54,114 bases of DNA from Pseudomonadota bacterium (lineage in GTDB: Bacteria; UBA10199; 2-02-FULL-44-16; JBDRGF01). Location: positions 1 to 54,114 of the forward strand of contig JBDRGF010000016.1 in assembly GCA_043818055.1 (NCBI GenBank). The letters are read 5' to 3'. Within the stretch, counting starts at the first letter, position 1, and each line of letters begins with the position of its first letter. Positions 23,120 through 48,825 of this stretch are shown here, in pieces. Under the pieces are notes generated by a model. It was not told where the DNA came from, made no database searches, and saw nothing but the letters and a program-made list of their open reading frames with translations. The position numbers and the translations under genes are program-made.

Positions 23120-23135
23120 AAAAATTCGGTTGCTT

Positions 23136-23197
23136 GTAGGGGAGGGTTTAAAACCCTCCCGTTATAGAAGGCGGGCAGGTTTAAAACCTGCCCCTAC
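23136..23197. repeat. Paired GTAG-family REP (REPIN-like doublet)
   Basis: GTAGGGGAGGGTTTAAAACCCTCCC ... GGGCAGGTTTAAAACCTGCCCCTAC. Confidence 0.8.
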
Positions 23198-23206
23198 AAA
23201 AACTTT

Positions 23207-26243: not shown

Positions 26244-26271
26244 GTAAGGGCGGTTCGCGAACCGCCCCTAC
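26244..26271. repeat. GTAG-family REP palindrome
   Basis: GTAAGGGCGGTTCGCGAACCGCCCCTAC. Confidence 0.8.
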
Positions 26272-28500: not shown

Positions 28501-28609
28501 TCGTGAAGCGTCATTCGTGAAACGTGGGTGGAAAAAATTATAATAATTTTCCTTGGACGCTTCACGCTTCACGGGTGGACGCTTCACGTATTGACGTTTA
28601 CGTCAATAC
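28501..28609. repeat. CGTGAAG heptamer element plus hairpin over the glyA stop
   Basis: Homologous to 3815-3936; GTATTGACGT-TT-ACGTCAATAC perfect hairpin at 28588-28609. Confidence 0.8.
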
Positions 28610-30469: not shown

Positions 30470-30510
30470 CTAAACCCCCCTTCGCTTGGATTTTTCACAA
30501 ATCCTGTGAC

Positions 30511-30868
30511 AAATCCAAGAAATTCCAAATTACAAGCACCAAATAACAAATAAGCTCCAAATCACAAGCACAAAATTGCAAACAGCTTCGTTTGGCAGTT
30601 TTGTTTTCGAAATTTGGGTAACTATTCAGGTGCCTGTCATTCCCGCGTACAGACTGTGTCATAATTGGTTTTTGGTGTCATCCTGAACAAAGTGAAGGAT
30701 CTTAAGTATCCGAAATCACAAGATTCTTCGCTTCGCTCAGAATGACATTATATGTAAAATTTGAATTATGACACAGTCTGGTAGGCGGGAATCCAGAGGT
30801 TTTATTATATGTGGATCCCCGATCGGAGTCGGGGATGACACAAAGAACAATTTGTTATTTGGAATTTT
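30511..30868. repeat. Nested repeat cluster: heptamer arms enclosing a GTCAT-type palindromic element
   Basis: CAAAT-period arms; GTCATTCCCGCG..GCGGGAATCCAG..TGGATCCCCGATCGGAGTCGGGGATGAC at 30636-30839. Confidence 0.75.
30650..30780. mobile_element. 131-bp MITE
   Basis: Perfect 17-bp TIRs CAGACTGTGTCATAATT; 3-bp GTA duplication; internal GTCATCCTGA..TCAGAATGAC palindrome. Confidence 0.8.
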
Positions 30869-30893
30869 CAGGATTTCTCATGAGAAATCCTGT

Positions 30894-34211: not shown

Positions 34212-34940
34212 TCATCTTGTATGAACTCCGATAGTCTCCAACTTCTCCTTAATCTTTTGCCAATTCGGACATTGCCTTTTTAAAAACTTATAAAAATTCT
34301 TATCATGATTTTTGTGCCTCATATGGCACAGTTCATGTGCGATTACATAATCGATACATTTTTTTGGGGTGTGGATTAGTTTTGGATTCAGGAGGATTGT
34401 GTCTTTGTTTAAAAAACTGCCCCAGCGTTTCTGCATATCCCTTATTACCAGCCTTGGGATTGTTTTATACTCAAACCGCAATTTCACTTGCTCATACCTG
34501 TCATGAAATATCTGGTCAATTTTTTCATCATACCACTTATCAAGCAATTTTTTCGTATATTTCCCATCCAGCACACTTTTTGTCGTATAGACTTTCAACA
34601 ATCCTTTTGTCATCAACACCTTATCTTCCTTCGCCTTTTCAACAAGAAGTTTGAATTGTCTTCCCAAGTATAAAAAACCTTCACCGGAAACGTATTCTTT
34701 TTGATATCTCTTTCTTTGGTACCTCTTAAAAAAACTCAATTGCTTTTCAAGCCAAAACCATTTCCTTCGCAAGAAACTTTCTATTCGTTCATTATCAGCA
34801 CCGCAAGGACATTTTAGAGTTATACCAAGATCCGGTTTTACGGTAAGACTGAGCGTTTTTCTATCCTGCATCACAAGATCGTAGTGATATACGAATGAGC
34901 CAAATATAAATTCTTTCTTGTGATTAGGAGAGTATCTCAT
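34212..34940 (-). CDS. YgjP/M48-like zinc metalloprotein associated with type I R-M
   Basis: RWGS, DYVIAHELCH..H..H...F; overlaps the hsdR stop. Confidence 0.85.
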   Translation of the reverse strand: MRYSPNHKKEFIFGSFVYHYDLVMQDRKTLSLTVKPDLGITLKCPCGADNERIESFLRRKWFWLEKQLSFFKRYQRKRYQKEYVSGEGFLYLGRQFKLLVEKAKEDKVLMTKGLLKVYTTKSVLDGKYTKKLLDKWYDEKIDQIFHDRYEQVKLRFEYKTIPRLVIRDMQKRWGSFLNKDTILLNPKLIHTPKKCIDYVIAHELCHMRHKNHDKNFYKFLKRQCPNWQKIKEKLETIGVHTR

Positions 34941-37900
34941 AATTATTTTCAGCAAGGATGAGTACCTTTGCAATAATCGCCTTCATGTCATCTTCTGACA
35001 GATCAAAGTTTTTTTCCTGTTTAACTACATCATAGAGATAATCATCTATTGCATTCATCATTCGGCGTTTGACATCGATATTCTTATACCAATCAACAAT
35101 CGCTTCTTGTTTTATTAGGTTGAAGATATCTAAGACGATAATGATATATGTTTCCTCGGAGAGATTGAATTTCTGGAAAAATTCTCTGAGATTACGATAG
35201 AATATGTCGGCTCCTTTTTGCACAACAATGTTTTCCGGAAGGCTCTCGTCTTTTTTACTCACCACGTCATCTTCAATCAGCTTCAACTGCTTTAGAGCTG
35301 CAATGTCAGCCATCTTACCTTCGCGCATCTTCTGTAAAATTTCAGAAATTTTCTTAGAAAAACGTTCATAGAACTCCGGATCGGTGTCCATTTTTTCGTC
35401 AATGGTCCTCTGTGTTTGCGCGGCAATCGCTTCGGCCTTGGATTTATCAGTACCAAGGGTCTCAATAGCCTCCTCAAATTGCTTTCGATCGGTGATGTTG
35501 ATTTGCTTGGTCAAAAGCTCAACTCCAAGTGCATCGACATACTTATCAAGGATATTTACAAGAGACTGTTTATATTCAGAAAGATCAATCCGGTCTGCAT
35601 ATTTCAAATTTGCAGCTTTACGAAGCTCCATCAGCTTCTTGAGCTCCCGTCTGTACATATCGAGATGTTTAAACTCATGGACAAAATCCTGAAGCACAAA
35701 ACATTCACTGAGATTCCGGATGAAATCATTAAGAGACTTATAAAACATCTCCCGCTTAGGATCGTCCTTGAGCAGCCTAAGAAAGGCTTCATCATCCGAA
35801 GAACCTTGAACCTCCTTAAAAAGATCATGTACTCTGCTGTAGCTCTCCTCAAGTTCTTGTATCTTCTCGGCAACATCAACAAGCGTTCCTTTTACATCGG
35901 TTTCATCATAGTTGCCAAAAAGCTTCATTGCGGTATTTATATTCTTGGCATTTTCCGAGTAGTCGATGATGTAGCCTGCTGTTTTTGGGAGTTTTTTGTT
36001 CTCAAAAAGACGGTTCACACGGGCAATAGCCTGAAGCAGGTTATGATCTCTTAAATCTTTTGCGAGATACAAAACTGTATTGCATGGAGCGTCAAAACCC
36101 GTAAGCAATTTATCCACAACGATAATGATTTCGATTCCGTCATCATTGTACTTGAAGCTATCGATGACATCTTTCTCATATTTCGCAACGCTGCTGTGAT
36201 TTTTGCGTATTGTGTCGAGGTAATTTACTACCTGTTTCTTATGAATATCGGCTTCATCACCGTCATCCTGCTCGTCTGAAATAACTACAGCGGAACGTAT
36301 TTTCCCGCTACTCTGAAAATATCTTTGAAAGAGAATTGCTGAATACTTGGATGGGGCAACAATTTGAGCTTTAAGTCCTGTGTTTTGAAAACGACTTAAA
36401 TAGTGTTTTTCGATATCGAACGATATTTCAACAATACGCTGAGGATTATCCCTGATAATTTTTGATCCAACATATTTCTGCAAATTCCGCTTCTGTTTGT
36501 CGCTTAAACCCTCTGTAATGCGTTCAACATGACGATCAATCTGTTCTTCGTTTTGTACCAAATTGACATACCTACCTTCATAGATGAGGGGCAAGATTAT
36601 CTTGTCGCCCAATCCATCGTCAATTGTGTATTGGTCAATATAACCGCCAAATTTCCTCCAACTTTCATTTTCGCTCTTCATGAGCGGCGTACCCGTAAAA
36701 CCGATATAGCAGGCGCCCGGAATAATCCGATTCATCTCTAAGTTAGCAATGCCGCTTTGGCTGCGATGCGCTTCGTCTATCAGGACAAAGATATTCTGGT
36801 CATTGTCAACGAATTCCGCCTTCTTCCTGGCCGCTGACTCAAACTTGTGAACAAAAGTAGTAACTACAGCGAGATTTTTCTCTTTAATAAGATCGAGAAG
36901 GTTTTTACCGCTTGTGGCCTGCACAACTTCTTTCTTTAAGTTGCAATTTTTGAATGTATCTTTGATCTGCTTATCCAGATCCTTACGATCCGTCACGATT
37001 ATCACCCGCGGATTGATTATATGGGGATGCTCAATGAGCGCCTTCACAAACATCACCATCGTGAGTGATTTGCCCGACCCTTGTGTATGCCAGATCAAAC
37101 CTCCGCAGCGACGCATTAAACCCGTCGGAGTCATTTCCTCTTCTGAAATCCTCGTGAGCATCTTGTGGATCGCAAAGTACTGCTGATAGCGGGAGAGCTT
37201 CTTCACCCCGGCATCAAAAAGTATGTAGTTTTTGGCTAGATCAAGCAGTCGCTCTGGCTTAAACAAAAACACGATTCCCTTATCCTGTTCGGTAGCCATA
37301 CGGCTAGTGTAATGAATTGCACCCCTGGTATCACCGTTCAAGTCAGCACGTACCTGTTTATATGTGTGAGAATCGATCTGCCTCTGCATGACCGACAACA
37401 TTTCAAACTCTATCTCTTTATCAGATAATCCCTTTTCTTTCCACAACGCATAAAACTTGTTCGGCGTCCCTGTAGTGCCGTACTTCAATTCGTCAACATT
37501 AGTTCCGACTAGAAGCTGGGTATAGGTAAAAAGTTTTGGACAAAATTCAGGCCCTTGATTGCGATTCATCTGATTCAGAGCATCTACTACAGGCACACTC
37601 TTTTTTTTATTTTCTATCACAGCAAGCGGGATACCATTTACGAAACAGACGATATCGGGACGAATGTTTTGTCTGCCGGTAGCAACAAATTCTGCAGTAA
37701 CATGAAAAGCGTTGTTCCTTGGATTCTCAAAATCAATAAAACGAAAGTTCTTTGAGTCCTTTTTTCCGCCAACACTCACTTTTATAGTCTTACCACCTTT
37801 TGTCGGCATGATGGTATTGTAGATCTTTTGAGAAGTATCAATGAGCCCCTCGTATTGAATATGTTCCAGCTCCTCAATCGCGTCCCTCACATCCTTCTCG

Positions 37901-38112
37901 CTAAACTTGTACTGGGTACCGCCCACTTCATATCCGTTAATCTCCATGAGCTTCCGGGAGGCGATCCCGGAAAGGATGAAGTTTCGCGAATCACCACCAC
38001 GCTGGCGCAGGGCATCTTCTCGTGAGATATATTCATATCCCATAGCTATAAGAAGCTCCAACGCCGGGAGCTGGGATTGTTTTGCTTCGTCAAAGTGTAC
38101 GTTTTCTAGCAT
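34924..38112 (-). CDS. hsdR: Type I restriction endonuclease R subunit
   Basis: RPDIVCFVNGIPL..IENK, WHTQGSGKS, DEAHRS, FTGTP, QAIARVNR. Confidence 0.95.
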   Translation of the reverse strand: MLENVHFDEAKQSQLPALELLIAMGYEYISREDALRQRGGDSRNFILSGIASRKLMEINGYEVGGTQYKFSEKDVRDAIEELEHIQYEGLIDTSQKIYNTIMPTKGGKTIKVSVGGKKDSKNFRFIDFENPRNNAFHVTAEFVATGRQNIRPDIVCFVNGIPLAVIENKKKSVPVVDALNQMNRNQGPEFCPKLFTYTQLLVGTNVDELKYGTTGTPNKFYALWKEKGLSDKEIEFEMLSVMQRQIDSHTYKQVRADLNGDTRGAIHYTSRMATEQDKGIVFLFKPERLLDLAKNYILFDAGVKKLSRYQQYFAIHKMLTRISEEEMTPTGLMRRCGGLIWHTQGSGKSLTMVMFVKALIEHPHIINPRVIIVTDRKDLDKQIKDTFKNCNLKKEVVQATSGKNLLDLIKEKNLAVVTTFVHKFESAARKKAEFVDNDQNIFVLIDEAHRSQSGIANLEMNRIIPGACYIGFTGTPLMKSENESWRKFGGYIDQYTIDDGLGDKIILPLIYEGRYVNLVQNEEQIDRHVERITEGLSDKQKRNLQKYVGSKIIRDNPQRIVEISFDIEKHYLSRFQNTGLKAQIVAPSKYSAILFQRYFQSSGKIRSAVVISDEQDDGDEADIHKKQVVNYLDTIRKNHSSVAKYEKDVIDSFKYNDDGIEIIIVVDKLLTGFDAPCNTVLYLAKDLRDHNLLQAIARVNRLFENKKLPKTAGYIIDYSENAKNINTAMKLFGNYDETDVKGTLVDVAEKIQELEESYSRVHDLFKEVQGSSDDEAFLRLLKDDPKREMFYKSLNDFIRNLSECFVLQDFVHEFKHLDMYRRELKKLMELRKAANLKYADRIDLSEYKQSLVNILDKYVDALGVELLTKQINITDRKQFEEAIETLGTDKSKAEAIAAQTQRTIDEKMDTDPEFYERFSKKISEILQKMREGKMADIAALKQLKLIEDDVVSKKDESLPENIVVQKGADIFYRNLREFFQKFNLSEETYIIIVLDIFNLIKQEAIVDWYKNIDVKRRMMNAIDDYLYDVVKQEKNFDLSEDDMKAIIAKVLILAENNYEILS

Positions 38113-38116
38113 AAAT

Positions 38117-38941
38117 TTACTTTAGTAACTTTTTTACCGTATTGTTTTCCAAAAGCGACTTCATCTGAACAATGGCGGTCTCATTGAGTTTGAGCAATCT
38201 ATCTTTTTGAGACATCCCCATTTTTATAAATTCTGCATTGAGACTTTCGAGATTCGCGAGACAGACGAGTTGATACACATCTGCGTAATCGCGCATATTT
38301 CCGGCTTTATTCTTGTTTTTATTTTTCCAATCATGGGAAGTCTCTCCAAAAAGGGCAACATTCAAGACATCAGCCTCATTTGCATATACAAGAGTAGCTT
38401 CTTTAACAGATAATTTATGCGGCAACACGATGTTTTCTTTTATCGAATCGGTATGAATTTTATAATTGATTTTTGTAAGCATGCGCTTCGCGTCCCAGCC
38501 AAGCAGAAGCCTTTGATTCTCTTCTACCTTCAACCGTTGAAATTCTTTAATCAAATACAACTTGAATTCGGGTGAAATCCAGGTCGCAAACTCAAAAGCA
38601 ATATCCTTGTGCGCAAATGTCCCACCGCCATAACGACCCGATTTGCTGATCATGCCAACAGCATTTACCCCCTCAATCCATCTCTTTGGGGTGAGAGAAA
38701 AACTATTAAACCCCGCTTTATTCCTAAACCCATCGAATTCGATGGGTTTAAAATCGGGATTGTTAATCTTCTCCCAAATACCTAAAAACTCTATAGTATC
38801 GCGGGTTCTCATCCAGTTCTGAATTATATAGTCCGTCCGTTCAGAGTCCTTATACCGTGCAATATCGGTTAGTGAAATATAGTCATTTTCATTCTGCTGA
38901 AACGTATATATTTGCAATCCCTGTGTGATTATTTTTTTCAT
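38117..38941 (-). CDS. KilA-N-type DNA-binding protein
   Basis: DYISLTDIA, GRYGGGTFAHKDIAFEFA.WISPEF. Confidence 0.85.
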   Translation of the reverse strand: MKKIITQGLQIYTFQQNENDYISLTDIARYKDSERTDYIIQNWMRTRDTIEFLGIWEKINNPDFKPIEFDGFRNKAGFNSFSLTPKRWIEGVNAVGMISKSGRYGGGTFAHKDIAFEFATWISPEFKLYLIKEFQRLKVEENQRLLLGWDAKRMLTKINYKIHTDSIKENIVLPHKLSVKEATLVYANEADVLNVALFGETSHDWKNKNKNKAGNMRDYADVYQLVCLANLESLNAEFIKMGMSQKDRLLKLNETAIVQMKSLLENNTVKKLLK

Positions 38942-40173
38942 ATAGTCACCCCGTTTTTAGTTGATAGTGTTTCCGGAGTTCTGATGGCTCCGGTGATTAG
39001 GTTGTTTAGGAGATACTTTTTTTGGTCTTTTAGGAGGGAGAGTTTTTGTTGGAGTGTTTTGATTTCGTTGTCGGTTGTGGTTAGAATATTGGCAATTGCT
39101 GTTTGTTCATCTTTTTTTGGAAATGTTAGTTTAATACTTTCGAATACACTTTTACTTATCATCGCCATAGCCCCATTTCCAGCAACTTCTTTTAGTTTAT
39201 TTGGAGAATTTTCAACCATGTAGTAGATAAACTCTGAATCAAAGTTAACGCTTGGAATAATTGCATTGATCTGTTGATTAAAAGACATCGGTTTCTTAGC
39301 AATAGCATTCTTACCAATTGAAGCTATACAAGTTACCAAAACAGAACCAGTTGGAACCTCCCTTGCCACTTTTCTTCCCAATTCAGATAATTTTATTTCT
39401 GTATCTTCAATATAAACCCCACTGAAATCTAATGCTGTTGCCCACAGATATTTTCCCCCATAATAATCTGATATTTTCTTACTTGGAGTATTACCAGTTA
39501 CAATTTTCCCGATATTTCGTATTTCTAGAGTTTCCCACTTATCCTTAAACCCGGGTAAACGAGTTTTGCCTGTAAGCAGTTCCTGCATCAAACCTTTCTT
39601 AATCTCCTTTTTAACCGCAATTTTCTTCGTCAGCTTCTCAATAGCCTTATCCCACGTCTCTAACACAGCAACTATCCGCTTTTGTTCTGGGAAGGGGGGA
39701 AGTTTTACTAAGCATGATTTTATAGACTTGATTGAAAGGTTTTTAATCGTAGAACCTGTAACTTCAGAAAGAAAATACCTTTGAGTATTATAAGAATTTA
39801 AAAAGTAAAAAATAAAACAAACATTTACTTTCGAATTAAGTTTTATATATGCACAACTTTTTCCTAAAACAACTTGCTCATTGTTATAATATGCTATCGA
39901 TCCAATGGTGCCATTTATTGACAAAAGAATTGTATTGCCCTGCTCTAGATCTTTCTTGTGTTTTAAATACTCTAAACAATCCACTTTTTTTGTATCATCT
40001 GAAAATATTATTTTGGAGTTATATAAATTATTGCCATTTATAAAATAATAATTTCCAATATCTGAATATTTGGGCGTAGTGTGGATACCATCACTAATTT
40101 TTAACGACAAGCTTTCTAGTGCTATTAATTTCCATTCACCTGAAATATTTTTTTGTGTAGGCTTATTTATCAT
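38938..40173 (-). CDS. hsdS: Type I R-M specificity subunit (two TRDs)
   Basis: PPFPEQKRIV..L, KKGLMQELLTG, EQTAIANIL repeats. Confidence 0.93.
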   Translation of the reverse strand: MINKPTQKNISGEWKLIALESLSLKISDGIHTTPKYSDIGNYYFINGNNLYNSKIIFSDDTKKVDCLEYLKHKKDLEQGNTILLSINGTIGSIAYYNNEQVVLGKSCAYIKLNSKVNVCFIFYFLNSYNTQRYFLSEVTGSTIKNLSIKSIKSCLVKLPPFPEQKRIVAVLETWDKAIEKLTKKIAVKKEIKKGLMQELLTGKTRLPGFKDKWETLEIRNIGKIVTGNTPSKKISDYYGGKYLWATALDFSGVYIEDTEIKLSELGRKVAREVPTGSVLVTCIASIGKNAIAKKPMSFNQQINAIIPSVNFDSEFIYYMVENSPNKLKEVAGNGAMAMISKSVFESIKLTFPKKDEQTAIANILTTTDNEIKTLQQKLSLLKDQKKYLLNNLITGAIRTPETLSTKNGVTI

Positions 40174-40175
40174 AA

Positions 40176-41990
40176 TTAAATAAAACATTCATAAATCATT
40201 TTAACATCATCAAAGACCTCTGGTTTTTCGCCAAGAGCAATATCAATATAGGCTTGTCTTACTTTTAAAATGTCTTCTTTTAAAACATCACTACAACATT
40301 TTGAAAAAATGGGTTTGCCTCGGAAATCATTTTTCCAAGTATCGTTATGAAGGGCATCCTCAAGTCTTTTAACTTCTTCTTTCATCCACGCCTTCAAATT
40401 TCGATCCGATAGGTCTGTGGCTAATTGTGTTAAAACTGTTTCTGTGCTTTTAGAAAATTCATTTATAATATTATCTATATCTTTTACATCAAGAGTTTTG
40501 ACGGTTGGAATATTAAAATTATGATTCGCTGCAATATACTCTTTTGCATTTTGTAGCAGGTTTAATTTTAATTGACCCGTGGCAATTTCTTTTAACTTCT
40601 GTTCAAGGCATTCTCTGGTAATTGTTTGTTGAACTGTTGTGATATAAAGCTTATTTGCAACCTTAAGCAAGATCTCTGAGTCTAAAAAATAATTTTCAAT
40701 GTGCCTTCTTTTTAGACATTTGATTCTTCCATTTGCTTCAAGTGATTGAACTTGAACTGGTGAAAGTCCATCTCTGTCGCGAATCATAAAAAAATCAATA
40801 CCAAAAATAGCATTACGTATTTGTTCCTCAAAAGCATTTAGAGCAATGACATTCTCTACAGAAGCAATAGGAATAATCTTAGCTTCAGGAAAATATTTCT
40901 GAGCAATAGAATGGTAGACTAGCCTGTCAATGCTAGATTCTTTTCCCTCCACAAATACTATTTTTTTTCCAACAGCAAAAAGACCTAAATTTTCTCCGAT
41001 CAAATCAACCAACTTTTTATGACTATGATTCAAATCACTAAGCTTATAAGCTTGATTTAATCCATTCCGCTCAAAATCAATAAAATAAACATTTCCAGTT
41101 GAGTAATAAGTAGAAATTAAATCAGCTGAATGTGTCAAAAATATGAATTGGTTCGTATAATCTCCGATTGCCTTAAGAGATTCAATTAACTTAAAAGATA
41201 AGGTTGGATGTAAATGCAATTCAGGTTCATCGACAATAATTATTGAATCTTTAATATCCTTTCTAGCAACGTCAAAAAGAACCTTAATCACTTCCTGTTC
41301 TCCTGAGCTTAAGGATCTAAACGGAAGAATTTTACCAGTAGAGTCTTCATATTGAAATTCCTTTGGCGTAACAGGATTAATATCTAATAGTTTTTTTTCT
41401 GGCAGGAGTGTGTTAAATATTGCCTTATATTTATCTAGTGGGTGTGGAAGTTTTTCTTTGATAGCCGTTGCGGTAATATTGGATCCTTTAGTAACTTCTG
41501 TAGCTAATTGATTTTGGTAAGCTGCTACTTTTCGATGGATATAATCCATAAAATCTTGCCATCGGTTCGTAAAATTCTGACAGTAGAAATTATTTTTAGT
41601 TTCCTGATCGTCTGGATCAGTTACCTGCCAACTTACTTGTTGGTATTTAATTGTTTGTATATTGCGATCCGAATCAATTTGCACAAGCGATCCAACATAT
41701 TGCCCGCGCCCAAAGCTCCTTTTCTTCATATAGGTAACTATTTTTGGATTAATTGAACCCTGTACGATATTAATTACAGAATCGCCAAAATGCTCTTTTT
41801 CCTTTTCTCTAGTTGCTTCTATCGATAACGACATTTGTGTCTCACCTTGTAAAGTATTAACAATTGCCTCTTTGAGACGCGTTTTTCCGGAACCATTTGC
41901 CCCAGCAATAATTACAACATCTCCCATATCATCAATTTTAAGATGTTTAATTGGTGAGAAATCGTTAATTTCCAAAGATTTTATTTTCAT
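40176..41990 (-). CDS. ABC-type ATPase fused to a TOPRIM-like domain (OLD/PARIS-like nuclease)
   Basis: GANGSGKT, LSSGE, IIIVDEPE.HLHP, LTHS; then FVEG..D, RDRDG, HIENYFL. Confidence 0.8.
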   Translation of the reverse strand: MKIKSLEINDFSPIKHLKIDDMGDVVIIAGANGSGKTRLKEAIVNTLQGETQMSLSIEATREKEKEHFGDSVINIVQGSINPKIVTYMKKRSFGRGQYVGSLVQIDSDRNIQTIKYQQVSWQVTDPDDQETKNNFYCQNFTNRWQDFMDYIHRKVAAYQNQLATEVTKGSNITATAIKEKLPHPLDKYKAIFNTLLPEKKLLDINPVTPKEFQYEDSTGKILPFRSLSSGEQEVIKVLFDVARKDIKDSIIIVDEPELHLHPTLSFKLIESLKAIGDYTNQFIFLTHSADLISTYYSTGNVYFIDFERNGLNQAYKLSDLNHSHKKLVDLIGENLGLFAVGKKIVFVEGKESSIDRLVYHSIAQKYFPEAKIIPIASVENVIALNAFEEQIRNAIFGIDFFMIRDRDGLSPVQVQSLEANGRIKCLKRRHIENYFLDSEILLKVANKLYITTVQQTITRECLEQKLKEIATGQLKLNLLQNAKEYIAANHNFNIPTVKTLDVKDIDNIINEFSKSTETVLTQLATDLSDRNLKAWMKEEVKRLEDALHNDTWKNDFRGKPIFSKCCSDVLKEDILKVRQAYIDIALGEKPEVFDDVKMIYECFI

Positions 41991-42033
41991 ATTTTTTTAT
42001 CCCCTCCAATTATCTCAAGAACTCAGCCTCTAA

Positions 42034-42087
42034 CCTTTCTGCACCAGAACCAATCTGGACCATTTCGTCCATATGGACAAAATGGTT
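42034..42087 (-). pseudogene. 54-bp remnant of a dinD allele
   Basis: 51/54 identical to 43628-43681; encodes NHFVHMDEMVQIGSGAER. Confidence 0.85.
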
Positions 42088-42111
42088 ATAACAATGTCGG
42101 GATTCCCGACA

Positions 42112-42945
42112 TTACCCTTTCAACCTCTTCTTCCCCTTCGGCAAATAGTTTGTACCAGTCACAACAGAACGACCAGTCTCCTCTTCCAACTCAACCCTTG
42201 CCTTTTTGGAGATCCCCCCACCCTTCACGCCAGCATCTTTGTTCTCCTCCATACCTGTAGCATTCACACTTTCAGCAATATGGCGGGTGGATAGTTCTGC
42301 TAATGCAGTGAAGATCAACTCAGCCTCATTCATATGATCTCGCAGATTTTGCGTCTTCAGACCTTTGATGGCTTTATGTTCTTTGACGGAAACACCCGAC
42401 CACTCCTGATGAATGATGTTTGTAAGGATGACGAATTCGTCGCCCTTTTTTATTTCATGATCGTTCCAGTAATCGGTTAGCTTGTTGCGGGTCTCCTGAC
42501 CCATCATCCGTTGCTGAATCCACTTTTCGCTGCGCCCATGTTTCTTCCAGGTTTCCCGCGCGCGATCGATTGATTTCGAAGGATCAGTCATTTCCTGCAT
42601 GCGCTCATGGCCAACTTTAGCTAGCCACAGTTTGATGGGCTCAGCTTTGGGGCTGGGGACAGATTGAATAAGTCGTAATAGGGTTTCAGAGGTGGCAGCA
42701 TCAGTCAACCGTAACTTGCCGTCTTCAGCCAACATTTTCAACTGGTGACAATTTGTCACCGTTTCACTTCCCTCATTTTTCAACCGTTCTTTGAGCTTAT
42801 TCCAATACTTTCTAGCCGTCTGATAATCAGGCTGCTGGATCAATGCCTGAATGATATCGACTACTGAAAAATACCATATTTCGGTCTTTTCATCGTACAA
42901 ACGACGAATCTTAAAATCTTCAAAAATTGTTAAATCACCTTTCAT
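42112..42945 (-). CDS. Bro-N-type DNA-binding protein
   Basis: WYFSVVDII, ARKYWNKLK, DGK.R.TD, QSVPSPKAEP.KLWLA. Confidence 0.85.
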   Translation of the reverse strand: MKGDLTIFEDFKIRRLYDEKTEIWYFSVVDIIQALIQQPDYQTARKYWNKLKERLKNEGSETVTNCHQLKMLAEDGKLRLTDAATSETLLRLIQSVPSPKAEPIKLWLAKVGHERMQEMTDPSKSIDRARETWKKHGRSEKWIQQRMMGQETRNKLTDYWNDHEIKKGDEFVILTNIIHQEWSGVSVKEHKAIKGLKTQNLRDHMNEAELIFTALAELSTRHIAESVNATGMEENKDAGVKGGGISKKARVELEEETGRSVVTGTNYLPKGKKRLKG

Positions 42946-42992
42946 ACAACCCCCAATTCTTTTAGATACTCGGCCATCTGTTTTTCGAACTT
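42942..42992 (-). pseudogene. Remnant of a second hsdM 3' end
   Basis: KFEKQMAEYLKELGVV* vs hsdM KLEKQMEGYLKELGIV*; 39/49 nt identical. Confidence 0.8.
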
Positions 42993-43045
42993 TTACAGTT
43001 ACGATAAAGCAATGGTAATTGAACTCTTTCCATTTTGGAAACGAT

Positions 43046-43879
43046 TCACCCCTTCAACTTCTTTTTTTCTTTTTTCTTCAATCTCGTCTGAATTTTTCCG
43101 ATACCATCCACAGCCGGCAAATCTTCAGGCATGGTGCCGCCCAGATTCGCAATCGTATTACGCACCTTTTGTCCAACATGATAATGAGTCAAACTTGCGT
43201 TTCCTTCACCTTTAATACTTTCGCGCTTAATTTTTGCCTCGGTTTGAGTCGCTCGGAATAAGTTTGCTGCAAGCTCCTCACTGTTCATGTGGTCGAGTAT
43301 TTTCTGCGATTTTTTCAACTTCTTTTTAACATGAATGTCTTGCATCCCCAATCCACCGTACAGACCTTTGTATCCAGCATTTTGAAAAATGGCATAATTT
43401 TCAACTCCTGCCATTGAAGCTGTTTGCGATAAACTGTTATTATGCTTTTTCATTTCCTCACGCAAAAAAATGCGTTTATTATCTTCAATCAGGCTATCTG
43501 TCTTTTCTTGTCTCCGAGTTTGGATTGCAAAATATGTTTGCCCCTTTGCTACCACAACCTTTGTTGGATCTGAATTTTGCACTATCAAATAGCATGCATA
43601 CCGTGAAAGACAGATGGTTTCTATTGGCCTTTCTGCACCAGAACCAATCCGTACCATTTCGTCCACATGGACAAAATGGTTGTGGATAACTTCACCACTG
43701 TTCTCGCATGCCGCTTTAGCCTTCTCAATTACATTAAGAAATTTACGATAATCTGGATATTCTAAAACCTTGGCAAGCTCTCGAGAAGACCAATATTCTC
43801 GTTTATCTGGGTCCAATTTTCTATGAATTTCAAAGATATTTCGAGATTTGACCATCAAATCAGCTTTTTCATCTCCCAT
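43046..43879 (-). CDS. dinD: DNA damage-inducible protein D family
   Basis: EYWSSREL, LSRYACYLIVQN.DP.K, QTYFAIQTR.QE, ELAANLFRATQTE. Confidence 0.88.
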   Translation of the reverse strand: MGDEKADLMVKSRNIFEIHRKLDPDKREYWSSRELAKVLEYPDYRKFLNVIEKAKAACENSGEVIHNHFVHVDEMVRIGSGAERPIETICLSRYACYLIVQNSDPTKVVVAKGQTYFAIQTRRQEKTDSLIEDNKRIFLREEMKKHNNSLSQTASMAGVENYAIFQNAGYKGLYGGLGMQDIHVKKKLKKSQKILDHMNSEELAANLFRATQTEAKIKRESIKGEGNASLTHYHVGQKVRNTIANLGGTMPEDLPAVDGIGKIQTRLKKKEKKKLKG

Positions 43880-43953
43880 GAGATAACTCCTTGATATTTA
43901 TAACGAACCATATCGAGGTTATTCTCGAGATGGTTTTTGTAAATGTATCCATA

Positions 43954-45468
43954 CTATACAATCCCCAATTCCTTCAAATACCCTTCCATCTGCTTTTCTA
44001 GCTTCTTCAATTCAGGCTCAAGCGTTTCAAGTTCTTTGAGGTTCGCCTTGATATCAACAGGCTCCTCTTCTTCAAATGTATCGACATAGCGGGTAATGTT
44101 GAGGTTGAATTCGTTCTCCCTGATCTCATCAAAACCTACTTTACGGGAAAACTTCTCTACATCTTTGCGTTTTTTGTACGTGTCGAAAATGTGAGCGATG
44201 TTTTCTTCGGTCAATGTATTCTGAGCCTTTCCCCGCTTGAATTCTTTTGACGCTTCGATGAAAAAAAGATCTTTTTTCTTCTCGTTTGAGCCACCCTTCT
44301 CACGCGATAGGTCAATCACAAGAACAGCTACAGGAATACCTGTCGTCTGAAAAAGTCCTGCCGGAAGACCGATTACGGTATCGATAATATTCTCTTTAAT
44401 GAGCTGCTCGCGGATTCTTCCCTCTGCGCCACCTCTGAAAAGCACGCCATGAGGAACGATCACCGCCACCCGGCCAACTTTTGGCTTCGCGGTTTCGATC
44501 ATGTGCGTAATGAATGCGAAGTCACCCTTGTCTTTAGGGGGAACACCTCGCCAGAAACGCTTATATTTATCGGCCTCCGCATGTTCGGCGCCCCACTTCT
44601 TAAGCGAGAAGGGCGGATTTGCCACAACCACATCGAAATGCATGAGGCTGTCATTCTCTACAAGAAGCGGATTGTTGAGCGTGTCACCCCATTCGAGACG
44701 GGCGGAGTCTTTGCCATGAAGAAACATGTTCATTCGAGCAAGTTGATAAGTCGAACCGGTGGATTCCTGACCGTAGAGCGCGTAGTTTTTGGAACCCCTT
44801 TTTTCAACCTCTTCACCGGCAAGAAGAAGAAGTCCACCTGATCCGCACGCAGGGTCTGAGATTCGATCGCCCCCCTTCGGCTCAGCGAGCATCGCGACAA
44901 GCTTTGCTACAGATCGGGTCGTGAAAAATTCTCCGGCTTTTTTGCCGGCATCGGCGCCGAAACGCTCGATCATATACATATATGAATTGCCGATGATGTC
45001 ATCGCCGACATCAGAGAGATCTATTTTGGCAAAATCGTGTATCAGATGACGGAGCATCTTGTTGCGTTGTTCAAGCTTGCCAAGCACAGATTCGGAATTG
45101 AAGTCCACACTGAACACACCTTCGAGTTTTTCCTTGTTGGCATCCTCGATCCGGTGAAGCGCCTTGTTAATTTCCTCGCCGATATTATCCTCTTCAATCT
45201 TGCTGTAGAGGTGATCGAAGGAGGATTTGGGGGGGAGATAAAAGCGATCGAGTTTCATTTTTTCTTCAATACGCTTTTCGTCCTTTCCAAAACGCTCCTT
45301 GTATTCAGCGTGTCGCTTCCTGTTTAAATCGCTGATGTATTTTAAAAAAAGCATCGTCAAGGCATAGTCTTTGTAAACGCTGCCATCCACGTTGCTGCGC
45401 GAAGAATCTGCCGCCGCCCAGAGTGCCTTGTTGAGATCCTCTTGTGTGTATTTTTTATGTGGGGTCAT
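43954..45468 (-). CDS. hsdM: Type I R-M N6-adenine methyltransferase
   Basis: GEFFT, DPACGSGG, ANPPF, HGVLFRG. Confidence 0.95.
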   Translation of the reverse strand: MTPHKKYTQEDLNKALWAAADSSRSNVDGSVYKDYALTMLFLKYISDLNRKRHAEYKERFGKDEKRIEEKMKLDRFYLPPKSSFDHLYSKIEEDNIGEEINKALHRIEDANKEKLEGVFSVDFNSESVLGKLEQRNKMLRHLIHDFAKIDLSDVGDDIIGNSYMYMIERFGADAGKKAGEFFTTRSVAKLVAMLAEPKGGDRISDPACGSGGLLLLAGEEVEKRGSKNYALYGQESTGSTYQLARMNMFLHGKDSARLEWGDTLNNPLLVENDSLMHFDVVVANPPFSLKKWGAEHAEADKYKRFWRGVPPKDKGDFAFITHMIETAKPKVGRVAVIVPHGVLFRGGAEGRIREQLIKENIIDTVIGLPAGLFQTTGIPVAVLVIDLSREKGGSNEKKKDLFFIEASKEFKRGKAQNTLTEENIAHIFDTYKKRKDVEKFSRKVGFDEIRENEFNLNITRYVDTFEEEEPVDIKANLKELETLEPELKKLEKQMEGYLKELGIV

Positions 45469-45473
45469 AATCT

Positions 45474-46058
45474 TTATCCCTCCATTAAGTTTCTAAAAGT
45501 TGCGTCGATAATGTTTTGTTTGATTTGATTCTGGCGCTCGATGATTTTCTGCTGTTCCAAAATGTTCGAGTGCAAATGTATGATGGCGTTTTGCTTTTCC
45601 AAACTCGGTGTTGGGATTTTAATTTTCTCAAGCTCTTTGCGAGGCAACACCCCGATGTAGGATCCGGAAACGATCTGTGTGAGAGCCTCTTGCCCATCTT
45701 TGGAGTTAAGATAGTGAGAAATGTATTCGGGTAATATATCTGCGGCAGTGATGCGGATCACATGCACAGATGATGAGGCGATAACATTGGGCGCCTCTGA
45801 CACAAAAATGGTTGACCTGAATGTTCCTGACTTCATGCCTCGCGCAACGAGCAGTATGTCATTTTTCTTTAAGTGCCCCGTGTATGCTGGGATGAGATGA
45901 GAAATCTTTGTCAGAATACGCGCATCCTCAAACGGCCTACCCTGAACAAGGTCTTTTGCCTGAAATACAGAGATATCGCCATTATTATCCGATTTTACAG
46001 CGCCACGGAAGGTGTAACCCGCTATTACAATGGCAATATCATGTAGTTTTTTATACAC
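45474..46058 (-). CDS. Half-size (single-TRD) type I specificity subunit
   Basis: L.DIA...G, L.KNDIL, YI..YLNS, I.IP.P.LEKQ. Confidence 0.75.
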   Translation of the reverse strand: MYKKLHDIAIVIAGYTFRGAVKSDNNGDISVFQAKDLVQGRPFEDARILTKISHLIPAYTGHLKKNDILLVARGMKSGTFRSTIFVSEAPNVIASSSVHVIRITAADILPEYISHYLNSKDGQEALTQIVSGSYIGVLPRKELEKIKIPTPSLEKQNAIIHLHSNILEQQKIIERQNQIKQNIIDATFRNLMEG

Positions 46059-46148: not shown

Positions 46149-46300
46149 CCCCTCCAACTCCCACTTGTCAGAGGCTGTTGCCGAACTAAAATGTAGGGGC
46201 AACCCCCCGTGGTTGCCCTCTTATAAGGGCAGGCACGGGGGCCTGCCCCTACAAAAACATCAAAAAACAGACTTCGGCGATGCCTCGTCAAGGGGGAGCG
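46149..46300. repeat. Repeat cluster: CCCCTCC/GGGGGAG-type palindrome pieces around a GTAG REP doublet
   Basis: GTAGGGGCAACCCCCCGTGGTTGCCC..GGGCAGGCACGGGGGCCTGCCCCTAC at 46193-46252. Confidence 0.7.
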
Positions 46301-48656: not shown

Positions 48657-48683
48657 AAATGTAAAGCTGCCCTAAAGGTTTTT

Positions 48684-48737
48684 GTAGGGGCTGACCCCAG
48701 TCATGCGACGTGGCACAGCACATGGATCGGCCCCTAC
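48684..48737. repeat. GTAG-family REP element
   Basis: GTAGGGGCTGACCC ... GGATCGGCCCCTAC. Confidence 0.7.
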
Positions 48738-48825
48738 AATAACTGTCATTTATTCAGTTCTTCTCATCTCGACTTGGGATTTTAAAAGTGTTATTATTTG
48801 GTAAATTTTTTAACAGGAGGGTTGA

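Follow-up and report, generated by a model that had tools for sequence, protein, structure and literature searches.

The dinD gene of the stretch analysed here (the window: 54,114 nucleotides, contig JBDRGF010000016.1 of the Pseudomonadota assembly GCA_043818055.1) carries a 28-bp palindrome, ACCAT-N18-ATGGT, within the codons of its own predicted DNA-binding domain. The palindrome is a feature of the DinD family: the same codons are palindromic in 165 of the 171 dinD genes assessed (at least 9 of 14 positions pair), compared with about 0.2% of 43,067 control windows. In sequence alignments, the variable bases 8-12 of each half-site change in step with residues 43-46 of the predicted recognition helix of the same protein. 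Copies of the palindrome also stand bare, outside dinD-like genes, in viral and intergenic DNA. From these patterns it is very probable that DinD binds the site directly. With confidence somewhat above even, we favour the reading that the palindrome is the cognate site of a DinD dimer and a self tag restraining a defence-type protein, and that bare copies in phages and islands are decoys. The residue-to-base code, the relocation of the palindrome to the leader and the bare phage copies appear to be new; by its sequence the window gene itself is a plain member of the DinD family.

The palindrome in the window and in the dinD family

The features that concern dinD and its sites are as follows.

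43046..43879, minus strand: dinD, 277 aa; Bro-N N-terminal domain (PF02498), long helix, helical C-terminal domain
43742..43753, minus strand: codons 43-46 (DYRK), at the start of the predicted recognition helix (44-60)
43653..43680, minus strand: intragenic site; half-sites TGTCC/CGTCC; codes residues 67-76, for the most part strand 1 of the predicted wing hairpin
43907..43934, minus strand: leader (spacer) copy, 27 nt before the dinD ATG; half-sites CGAGA/CGAGG
43796..43906, minus strand: leader spacer, ribosome-binding site and codons 1-28, probably inherited from a "leader clade" dinD (see below)
42034..42087, minus strand: third copy, a dinD fragment; site 42059-42086 (TGTCC/CGTCC) plus 25 nt of 3' coding sequence

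The window protein matches the DinD family model NF008573 over residues 7-276 (371.3 bits, cut-off 242). PADLOC lists the DinD family as a defence candidate, and its PDC-S13 profile matches the window dinD with E 5.9e-111; the neighbouring Bro-N gene matches another PDC-S13 profile (6.1e-118). The AlphaFold model of the protein (pLDDT 92.7) has a helix at residues 44-60 and a beta-hairpin at 69-77/83-91, the first strand of which is coded by the palindrome.

The initial annotation had reported three sites in the window, and pattern search confirmed their positions and quoted sequences: ACCAT-N18-ATGGT occurs at 42059-42086, 43653-43680 and 43907-43934, with 8, 7 and 6 of 9 core positions paired across the three sites. 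The chance mean is 0.04 and none of 100 shuffles gives three. It had also translated the spacer copy as NHLENNLDMVR, which is a correct reading but lies within no open reading frame (ORF). Across the whole 2.9-Mb genome the bare flank pattern has four matches at N18 and 0-6 at other spacings, with no excess at N18. All four N18 matches have paired cores and are tied to dinD-like genes; three are those of the window and the fourth exact copy lies within a second dinD-like gene on contig C77. Contigs from public sequencing runs contain each of the three window sites: X2 record 12 spans 41898-42470 with one letter different and bridges the third copy, X1 record 5 spans 42832-43790 with no differences (intragenic copy), and X3 record 21 spans 43818-44014 with no differences (spacer copy). 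Run X1 may be the source sample itself.

For the family, 212 dinD-like genes were gathered from genomes, metagenomes and viral contigs, of which 172 were kept at <95% identity; one frameshifted and misparsed gene (L120 in our locus numbering) was left out, giving the 171 assessed. Their site regions encode 112 distinct peptides. Held-out genes from two other phyla are palindromic at the same place in 37 of 37 cases, and E. coli K-12 dinD carries the site. Within the window's phylum, DinD is matched in 26 of 93 genomes and the strict site pattern in 27 of 93, against none for a reversed control; a looser phylum-wide pattern matched 93 of 93 and was uninformative.

The helix code, leader sites and the probable origin of the window gene

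The code was derived by sorting the half-sites of 162 genes, with residues 43-46 set against half-site bases 8-12. EYRH goes with CGAGG (35 of 36 half-sites), EWRN with TGTTG (33 of 36), DYRK with YGTCC (20 of 24), RWEN with TCGTG (6 of 6) and DYRN with CGTTG or CGGTG (79 of 88); E[YF]RN goes mostly with CGTGG, KWDN with TGCCG/TCCCG, and QWRR with TGCC[AG]. Mutual information with the half-site bases peaks at residues 43 (2.21 bits), 46 (1.97), 49, 45 and 44 (1.10), compared with 0.83 or less for the more tightly linked columns that flank the site and a median of 0.16. Bases 8-12 are predicted at 0.917 from genes that have an identical helix tip but are less than 65% identical overall, and at 0.742 from the nearest genes below that identity (of 162 genes, 121 could be tested; the tip did better for 64 and worse for 4). 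In the held-out set, the tip gives 0.930 and the majority within the set 0.688 (33 of 37 could be tested; the tip did better for 25 and worse for 0). Silent bases track the helix as well: at Val70 all 14 xxRK genes have GTC and all 67 [DE]xRN genes have GTT, while Val codons elsewhere in these genes are mixed. Val70 is GTG in 9 of 10 E[YF]RN genes with Pro49, a class defined after the data had been seen. On the whole-protein tree, independent pairs run 6.7:0, 5.8:0 and 8.1:0 (median p 0.016, 0.031 and 0.008). The proposal of the initial annotation that the sites are read by DinD is supported in silico.

In E. coli, K-12 dinD is matched by 4,714 of 5,426 complete genomes, and over 80% of its length in 1,544. 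Two K-12-type genes have an EYRH helix and a CGAGG site, and three sampled genomes with shorter matches have another N-terminal block in common, in which the helix is DWRN and the site CGTTG/TGGTG. Helix and site move together and are stable within each type in the five E. coli genomes aligned. At this locus (L390-L395) at least two N-terminal alleles, codons ~10-82, have been swapped as a block; a 603-nt deletion form and one copy with an internal stop were also seen.

The intragenic palindrome is missing from 6 of the 171 genes. In five of these six (L029-L033, all from the window's phylum) there is a copy in the leader, at a distance of exactly 254 nt upstream from the decayed position and 24-27 nt ahead of the ATG; the spacer copy of the window sits at the same -254 nt offset. 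Four of the five form one clade (SH-aLRT 100), L033 being omitted from the tree as truncated. In this leader clade the leader copies have 9-11 of 14 pairs and differing cores, and the coding copies are down to 3-7. As the leader copies stay paired while the coding copies decay, the constraint is on the DNA in cis and not on the peptide. The leader copy is cognate to its own gene, that is, of the type that goes with its helix, in L029, L030, L032, L033 and L038, and non-cognate in the window; among genes lacking the intragenic palindrome, all 4 leader sites that could be tested conform to the helix code.

The window dinD was compared with the leader clade and with five close relatives of its gene body, three of them from Patescibacteria. 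Over the leader and codons 1-12 its identity is 69-77% to L029-L033 and 23-29% to the gene-body relatives; for codons 13-28 the values are 56-79% and 42-48%. The order is reversed for codons 29-66 (61-65% to the leader clade, 75-84% to the gene-body relatives) and codons 78-100 (63-68% and 75-82%), and the gene body groups among Patescibacteria-type genes in the tree. On these identities, the window dinD is a chimera with its junction near codon 28-29, away from the site. A 7-bp inverted repeat in codons 7-12 is not kept in the leader clade.

The window protein has the DYRK helix, to which the intragenic copy and the copy at 42059 are cognate. The spacer copy is of the type paired with EYRH/EFRH helices, as in L032 and L033, and is non-cognate to DYRK. 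It is best read, from its type, as the site of the previous resident gene, left or kept upon replacement of the body. The earlier gene would have been a leader-clade dinD, with a leader site matching its EYRH/EFRH helix; an incoming dinD of DYRK type, with an intragenic site of its own, would have taken its place from about codon 29 onward, and the third copy would be a piece of some DYRK-type dinD. Such a replacement would account for the "rewritten" spacer core to which the initial annotation drew attention; the spacer copy is probably not, as had been proposed, an operator of the present protein. The third copy is identical to the window dinD at 51 of 54 nt (protein-search match at 42034-42126), and its site ends 68 nt before the ATG of an ATPase gene.

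Extragenic copies near dinD are uncommon elsewhere. A search for them, as the initial annotation had suggested, found 16 sites, compared with 0-1 matches for total lengths of 24, 26, 30 and 32, but in only 12 of 168 loci. Among the held-out loci three extragenic copies occur in 2 of 37, all resembling the neighbouring gene's own site.

Bare copies and the restriction-modification locus

An exact pattern scan of viral contigs gave at least 120 loci, where control spacers of 12 and 8 give 4 and 8 in total. Among the 120 matches listed, 6 lie in a DinD N-terminal domain (at least 20 bits with the site masked) and 114 are bare (107 distinct contexts). Among the same matches, a second site is present within 150 nt in 13 of 107 contexts, compared with 1 at 300-450 nt, and is often of another allele. 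Of the 176 bare half-sites, 149 are of types also found inside genes. At positions 12-14, a set of 88 distinct bare sites retains the base preferences of the in-gene sites, with no pairing beyond those. The idea that the sites are read by "flank plus shape" finds no support, given these preferences and the tracking of the helix by bases 8-12.

When 45 viral records with bare sites were profile-scanned, 2 matched the DinD profile and none had an intact DinD DNA-binding domain: one has the DinD C-terminal domain only, with another N-terminal domain, and the other a 25-residue stretch at the site itself. Of 18 records at least 90% complete, 16 have no DinD profile match. In a 302-aa viral protein (L396) a DinD-type C-terminal domain is combined with an N-terminal domain of another kind, and the window's Bro-N gene, given the shared PDC-S13 profile, may have a similar fusion layout. 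Among cultured phages, streptococcal satellites carry dinD with its site, and full phages such as the streptococcal EJ-1 carry the site with no annotated feature: satellite Javan302 has an EWRN DinD with TGTTG, and the bare site of EJ-1 is TGTTG/TGTTA, the EWRN type.

Dense viral arrays, with at least three different DinD-type and related palindromes in ~150 nt, were seen in L349, L353, L356, L363, L368 and L308. In relatives from the window's phylum, intergenic bare sites occur with no dinD in the stretch examined (L240:1501-1528, L243:1501-1528, L244:362-389, L236:1501-1528); of these, the one in L240 closely resembles the spacer copy of the window. Bare sites follow Bro-N genes in two other restriction-modification (R-M) loci (L238, L245), again with no dinD in the stretch examined. 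Palindromes resembling those of Bro-N and KilA-N genes, as labelled by eye, stand bare by DinD sites in L031/L250, L238, L251 and viral L295 and L349. In L251 the gene upstream of a leader-clade dinD has a perfect intragenic palindrome with 14-bp arms, preceded by a bare KilA-N-like palindrome (L251:5479-5507, L251:4704-4735); this gene looks DUF1016-like.

The window's dinD lies in a type I R-M locus with the minus-strand gene order hsdM, dinD, second Bro-N gene, AriAB-like ATPase, hsdS, KilA-N gene, hsdR. Its other features are as follows.

34924..46058, minus strand: type I R-M locus hosting these genes
45474-46058, minus strand: hsdS-like, 194 aa, single-domain
43954-45468, minus strand: hsdM
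42112..42945, minus strand: second Bro-N gene (PDC-S13 profile); its intragenic palindrome, at 42744-42760, is a different one
42093..42113, strand not assigned: 21-bp palindrome that overlaps the stop codon of the Bro-N gene and lies 6 nt from the third DinD site
40176..41990, minus strand: ABC-type ATPase fusion, 604 aa, best PADLOC match AriAB
38938-40188, minus strand: hsdS, 416 aa, full
38117..38941, minus strand: KilA-N gene, PDC-S22, perfect 26-bp intragenic palindrome at 38725-38750
34924-38112, minus strand: hsdR

Two HsdS-type genes (194 aa and 416 aa) thus flank hsdM and the inserted genes. Pattern searches put the 42093-42113 palindrome in no gene family; the label "RhuM-type" was not confirmed, the two outside matches lying within unrelated ORFs. 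REP-like hairpins with a GTAG foot occur at 23134-23199, 26244-26271, 46192-46253 and 48678-48743, and more strong palindromes lie outside the R-M locus at 28588-28609, 30485-30519 and 30869-30892. Contigs of one RNA library cover part of the locus and are uninformative on transcription or its level. In PMC9881135, dinD, RhuM and DUF1016 are listed only as neighbours of type I R-M genes.

Readings of the site and related systems

From the dyad of the site, the code and the DdrC-like fold of the protein, it is likely that the site is read as duplex DNA by a dimer of DinD. The best fold match of the full DinD chain is DdrC of Deinococcus radiodurans (PDB 8U0G, 7UDI, 7QVB; Foldseek E 6e-5; Z 14.3, 197 aligned, rmsd 10.8), the next unrelated row having Z 5.5; a sequence search of the PDB found no DinD relative (best E 0.011). 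The two proteins have in common a two-domain fold with a long linker helix, at 13-16% identity and an rmsd of ~11 A over two domains. DdrC is a DNA-binding homodimer and is reported to sense nicks and breaks through DNA deformation (PMC11347143). A dimeric DinD is thus suggested by dyad and modelled fold, but in contrast to the deformation readout of DdrC, the covariation in DinD points to base readout.

In the favoured reading, a DinD dimer would recognise its cognate site as duplex DNA, site DNA at its own locus would hold it in check as a "self" tag, and phages or islands with bare sites would titrate it. Neutralisation by site DNA would be the simplest account of phages that lack the gene yet keep cognate sites, sometimes several types in a row. 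By analogy with BstA-aba, we put an anti-phage or anti-element activity of DinD that is neutralised in this manner only just above an even chance.

The parallel is with BstA, a DNA-binding defence protein (KilA-N-like) that also has a short DNA element in its own locus. As described by Owen et al. 2021 (PMC8585504), aba overlaps the bstA gene at its start, variant proteins have cognate elements, and aba acts as DNA, in cis and in trans at high copy, neutralising BstA with cognate specificity. There the element is 63 bp with terminal CCCGCC direct repeats, and the mechanism was left open (PMC8585504). A protein-specific element in its own gene is likewise found in silico for DinD, whether intragenic or in the leader. 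The DinD element differs in being a 28-bp inverted repeat in codons of the DNA-binding domain, with no 63-bp CCCGCC structure, and the DinD system differs in its explicit residue-base code and in bare copies in phages without the gene. In BstA-aba the element suppresses abortive infection, an activity that is putative for DinD. None of the five PADLOC matches in the window is to a BstA profile, no direct comparison with BstA having been made. By this analogy, the DinD site system likely works in the manner of BstA-aba without the aba element structure, as a variant of that kind.

Self-addressed genes are known elsewhere, as with parS inside parB-type genes and pac sites inside small-terminase genes. 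These likewise place a binding site in the protein's own coding sequence, but they serve partition or packaging of the carrier replicon, whereas the DinD site lies in the codons of the DNA-binding domain itself and is carried by unrelated phages. Integron attC sites have RYYYAAC...GTTRRRY ends and a length above ~55 bp, and REP (RAYT) elements have a GTAG foot on a hairpin. Together with Xer dif/pdif sites, they share with the DinD sites the trait of short palindromes at gene boundaries with variable cores. At 28 bp and with ACCAT...ATGGT ends, the DinD site has neither the ends nor the length of attC; it has no GTAG foot, and the GTAG-footed hairpins of the window (for example 46192-46253) are separate from it. 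In contrast to all three, the DinD core follows the cognate protein, and no rearrangement was seen in four low-depth contig sets.

Several points weigh against the favoured reading. The only printed DinD function found is inhibition of RecA strand exchange by the E. coli protein (PcsA), as cited in PMC4129442; E. coli dinD is also listed as LexA-regulated (PMC6590174). Binding, toxicity, defence and decoy action by DinD are putative. The label "recognition helix" comes from model topology and covariation, and Foldseek with the N-terminal domain alone gave no match at E <= 0.001. Within the code, EYRN is ambiguous (CGTGG in 9 of 18, TGTTG/CGTTG in 6), the residue-base rules used in the independent-pairs test were chosen post hoc from the same data, and on the N-terminal-block tree the four tests listed had 3-5 supported pairs each, too few for significance and none opposite. 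The 16 extragenic sites near dinD genes, which the initial annotation had asked to be compared with intragenic types, divide into 7 cognate, 7 non-cognate and 2 untypable. Since the leader-type genes form a single clade, the intragenic site may have been lost only once. Positions 8, 10 and 11 of bare sites covary modestly beyond base preference; a collection of symmetric sites that differ in specificity should show this, and a hairpin or template switching would produce it too. A short BLAST of cultured coliphages, blind without an 11-nt exact word, gave no clean bare copy of either E. coli allele; it returned weak in-gene matches and two exact 30-nt matches in unannotated records.

The main rival is plain transcription control, in which DinD binds its cognate site purely as an autorepressor, by intragenic roadblock or leader operator, and bare copies are operators borrowed by islands and phages; on this reading DinD would control the window's ATPase gene through the third copy. 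We consider this rather unlikely as the whole explanation, and it is compatible with the favoured reading. All of the recognition-code evidence fits it equally. Seven loci have their leader copies 24-29 nt ahead of the start codon, and bare viral sites avoid long ORFs (39 of 107 compared with 112 of 142 control positions, among the matches listed); in five annotated phage and satellite contexts there are four bare sites, all between genes. On the other hand, the window's leader copy and six more of the testable sites near dinD genes do not match the helix of the neighbouring gene; arrays with different alleles in tandem are more in keeping with titration of several specificities than with control of one promoter; and the sampled phage copies adjoin unrelated genes (after lysin, before terminase, before a tRNA, before a methylase). 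A promoter scan of 41800-44200 was at chance level, with none over the leader site.

Three further explanations are disfavoured, and none explains the code in non-coding copies. The first, which we hold to be very improbable, is a mutational artefact: template switching would keep the symmetry, peptide co-evolution would tie the wing strand to the helix, and free copies would be neutral remnants of deleted dinD genes. The third copy of the window is indeed a gene fragment, as is L235, some arm positions covary, and Phe-to-Ile type changes at residue 69 restore symmetry. Yet non-coding leader sites obey the code in all testable cases while the coding copy decays, the ACCA/ATGGT ends are conserved in non-coding copies, viral matches number more than 120 at the exact spacing as against the few at control spacers, and allele arrays occur in records without dinD.

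A slightly poorer case can be made for recombination sites or stored alleles, attC-like or dif-like, at which a recombinase would swap or excise DNA and rewrite the variable peptide, a suggestion of the initial annotation. DinD-type sites often abut stop codons (L031, L174, L238, L245), the homology of the third copy to dinD begins at the palindrome foot, and the arms read 11-6-11. Against this, no joint among the three sites was found in four public runs (Logan contigs only, at low depth), the three joints listed there lying elsewhere and coming from partial or unrelated contigs. The chimera junction is away from the site; the E. coli swap spans the whole helix-plus-site block, with the site stable per block; and if only the core were swapped, helix and site would no longer match, as they do for 93% of held-out bases. 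Least probable of all is an mRNA hairpin tuning translation or hiding an internal start codon at Met75: all three window copies fold as hairpins, two better on the coding strand with a G-T pair, and G-T exceeds A-C at pair 8:21 (19 vs 4), but silent bases track the protein helix beyond mere pairing, bare-site positions 12-14 show base preference without covariation, pair 13:16 has 30 A-C against 7 G-T, and Met75 varies among genes.

A full-text literature search, in which few subscription papers were covered, returned no account of the DinD palindrome, code, phage copies, specific binding or two E. coli alleles. The name PDC-S13 is absent from the main text of the PADLOC-candidate preprint, and a preprint on Rpn intragenic antitoxins was set aside, as dinD is there only a reporter. 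More broadly, and as a tentative proposal to which we give somewhat less than even weight, DinD and its kin (Bro-N, KilA-N and DUF1016 proteins, each with its own intragenic palindrome) may form a lock-and-key defence silenced by a self-coded site, from which phages would escape through non-coding arrays of captured sites of several specificities; at the DNA level this would parallel the solitary-repeat RNA anti-CRISPRs.

In E. coli, dinD has long been known as an SOS gene, with no clear job. From the code, the exact target of every DinD variant can be predicted. Under the plain-operator reading, the family would be a natural set of orthogonal repressor-operator pairs with the operator coded inside the DNA-binding domain. 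If the decoy reading is true, it would supply the missing mechanism for aba-type DNA self-immunity and define a purely non-coding class of phage counter-defence, overlooked by gene-centred searches, and the DinD type of a host would be predictable from the intergenic DNA of its phages.

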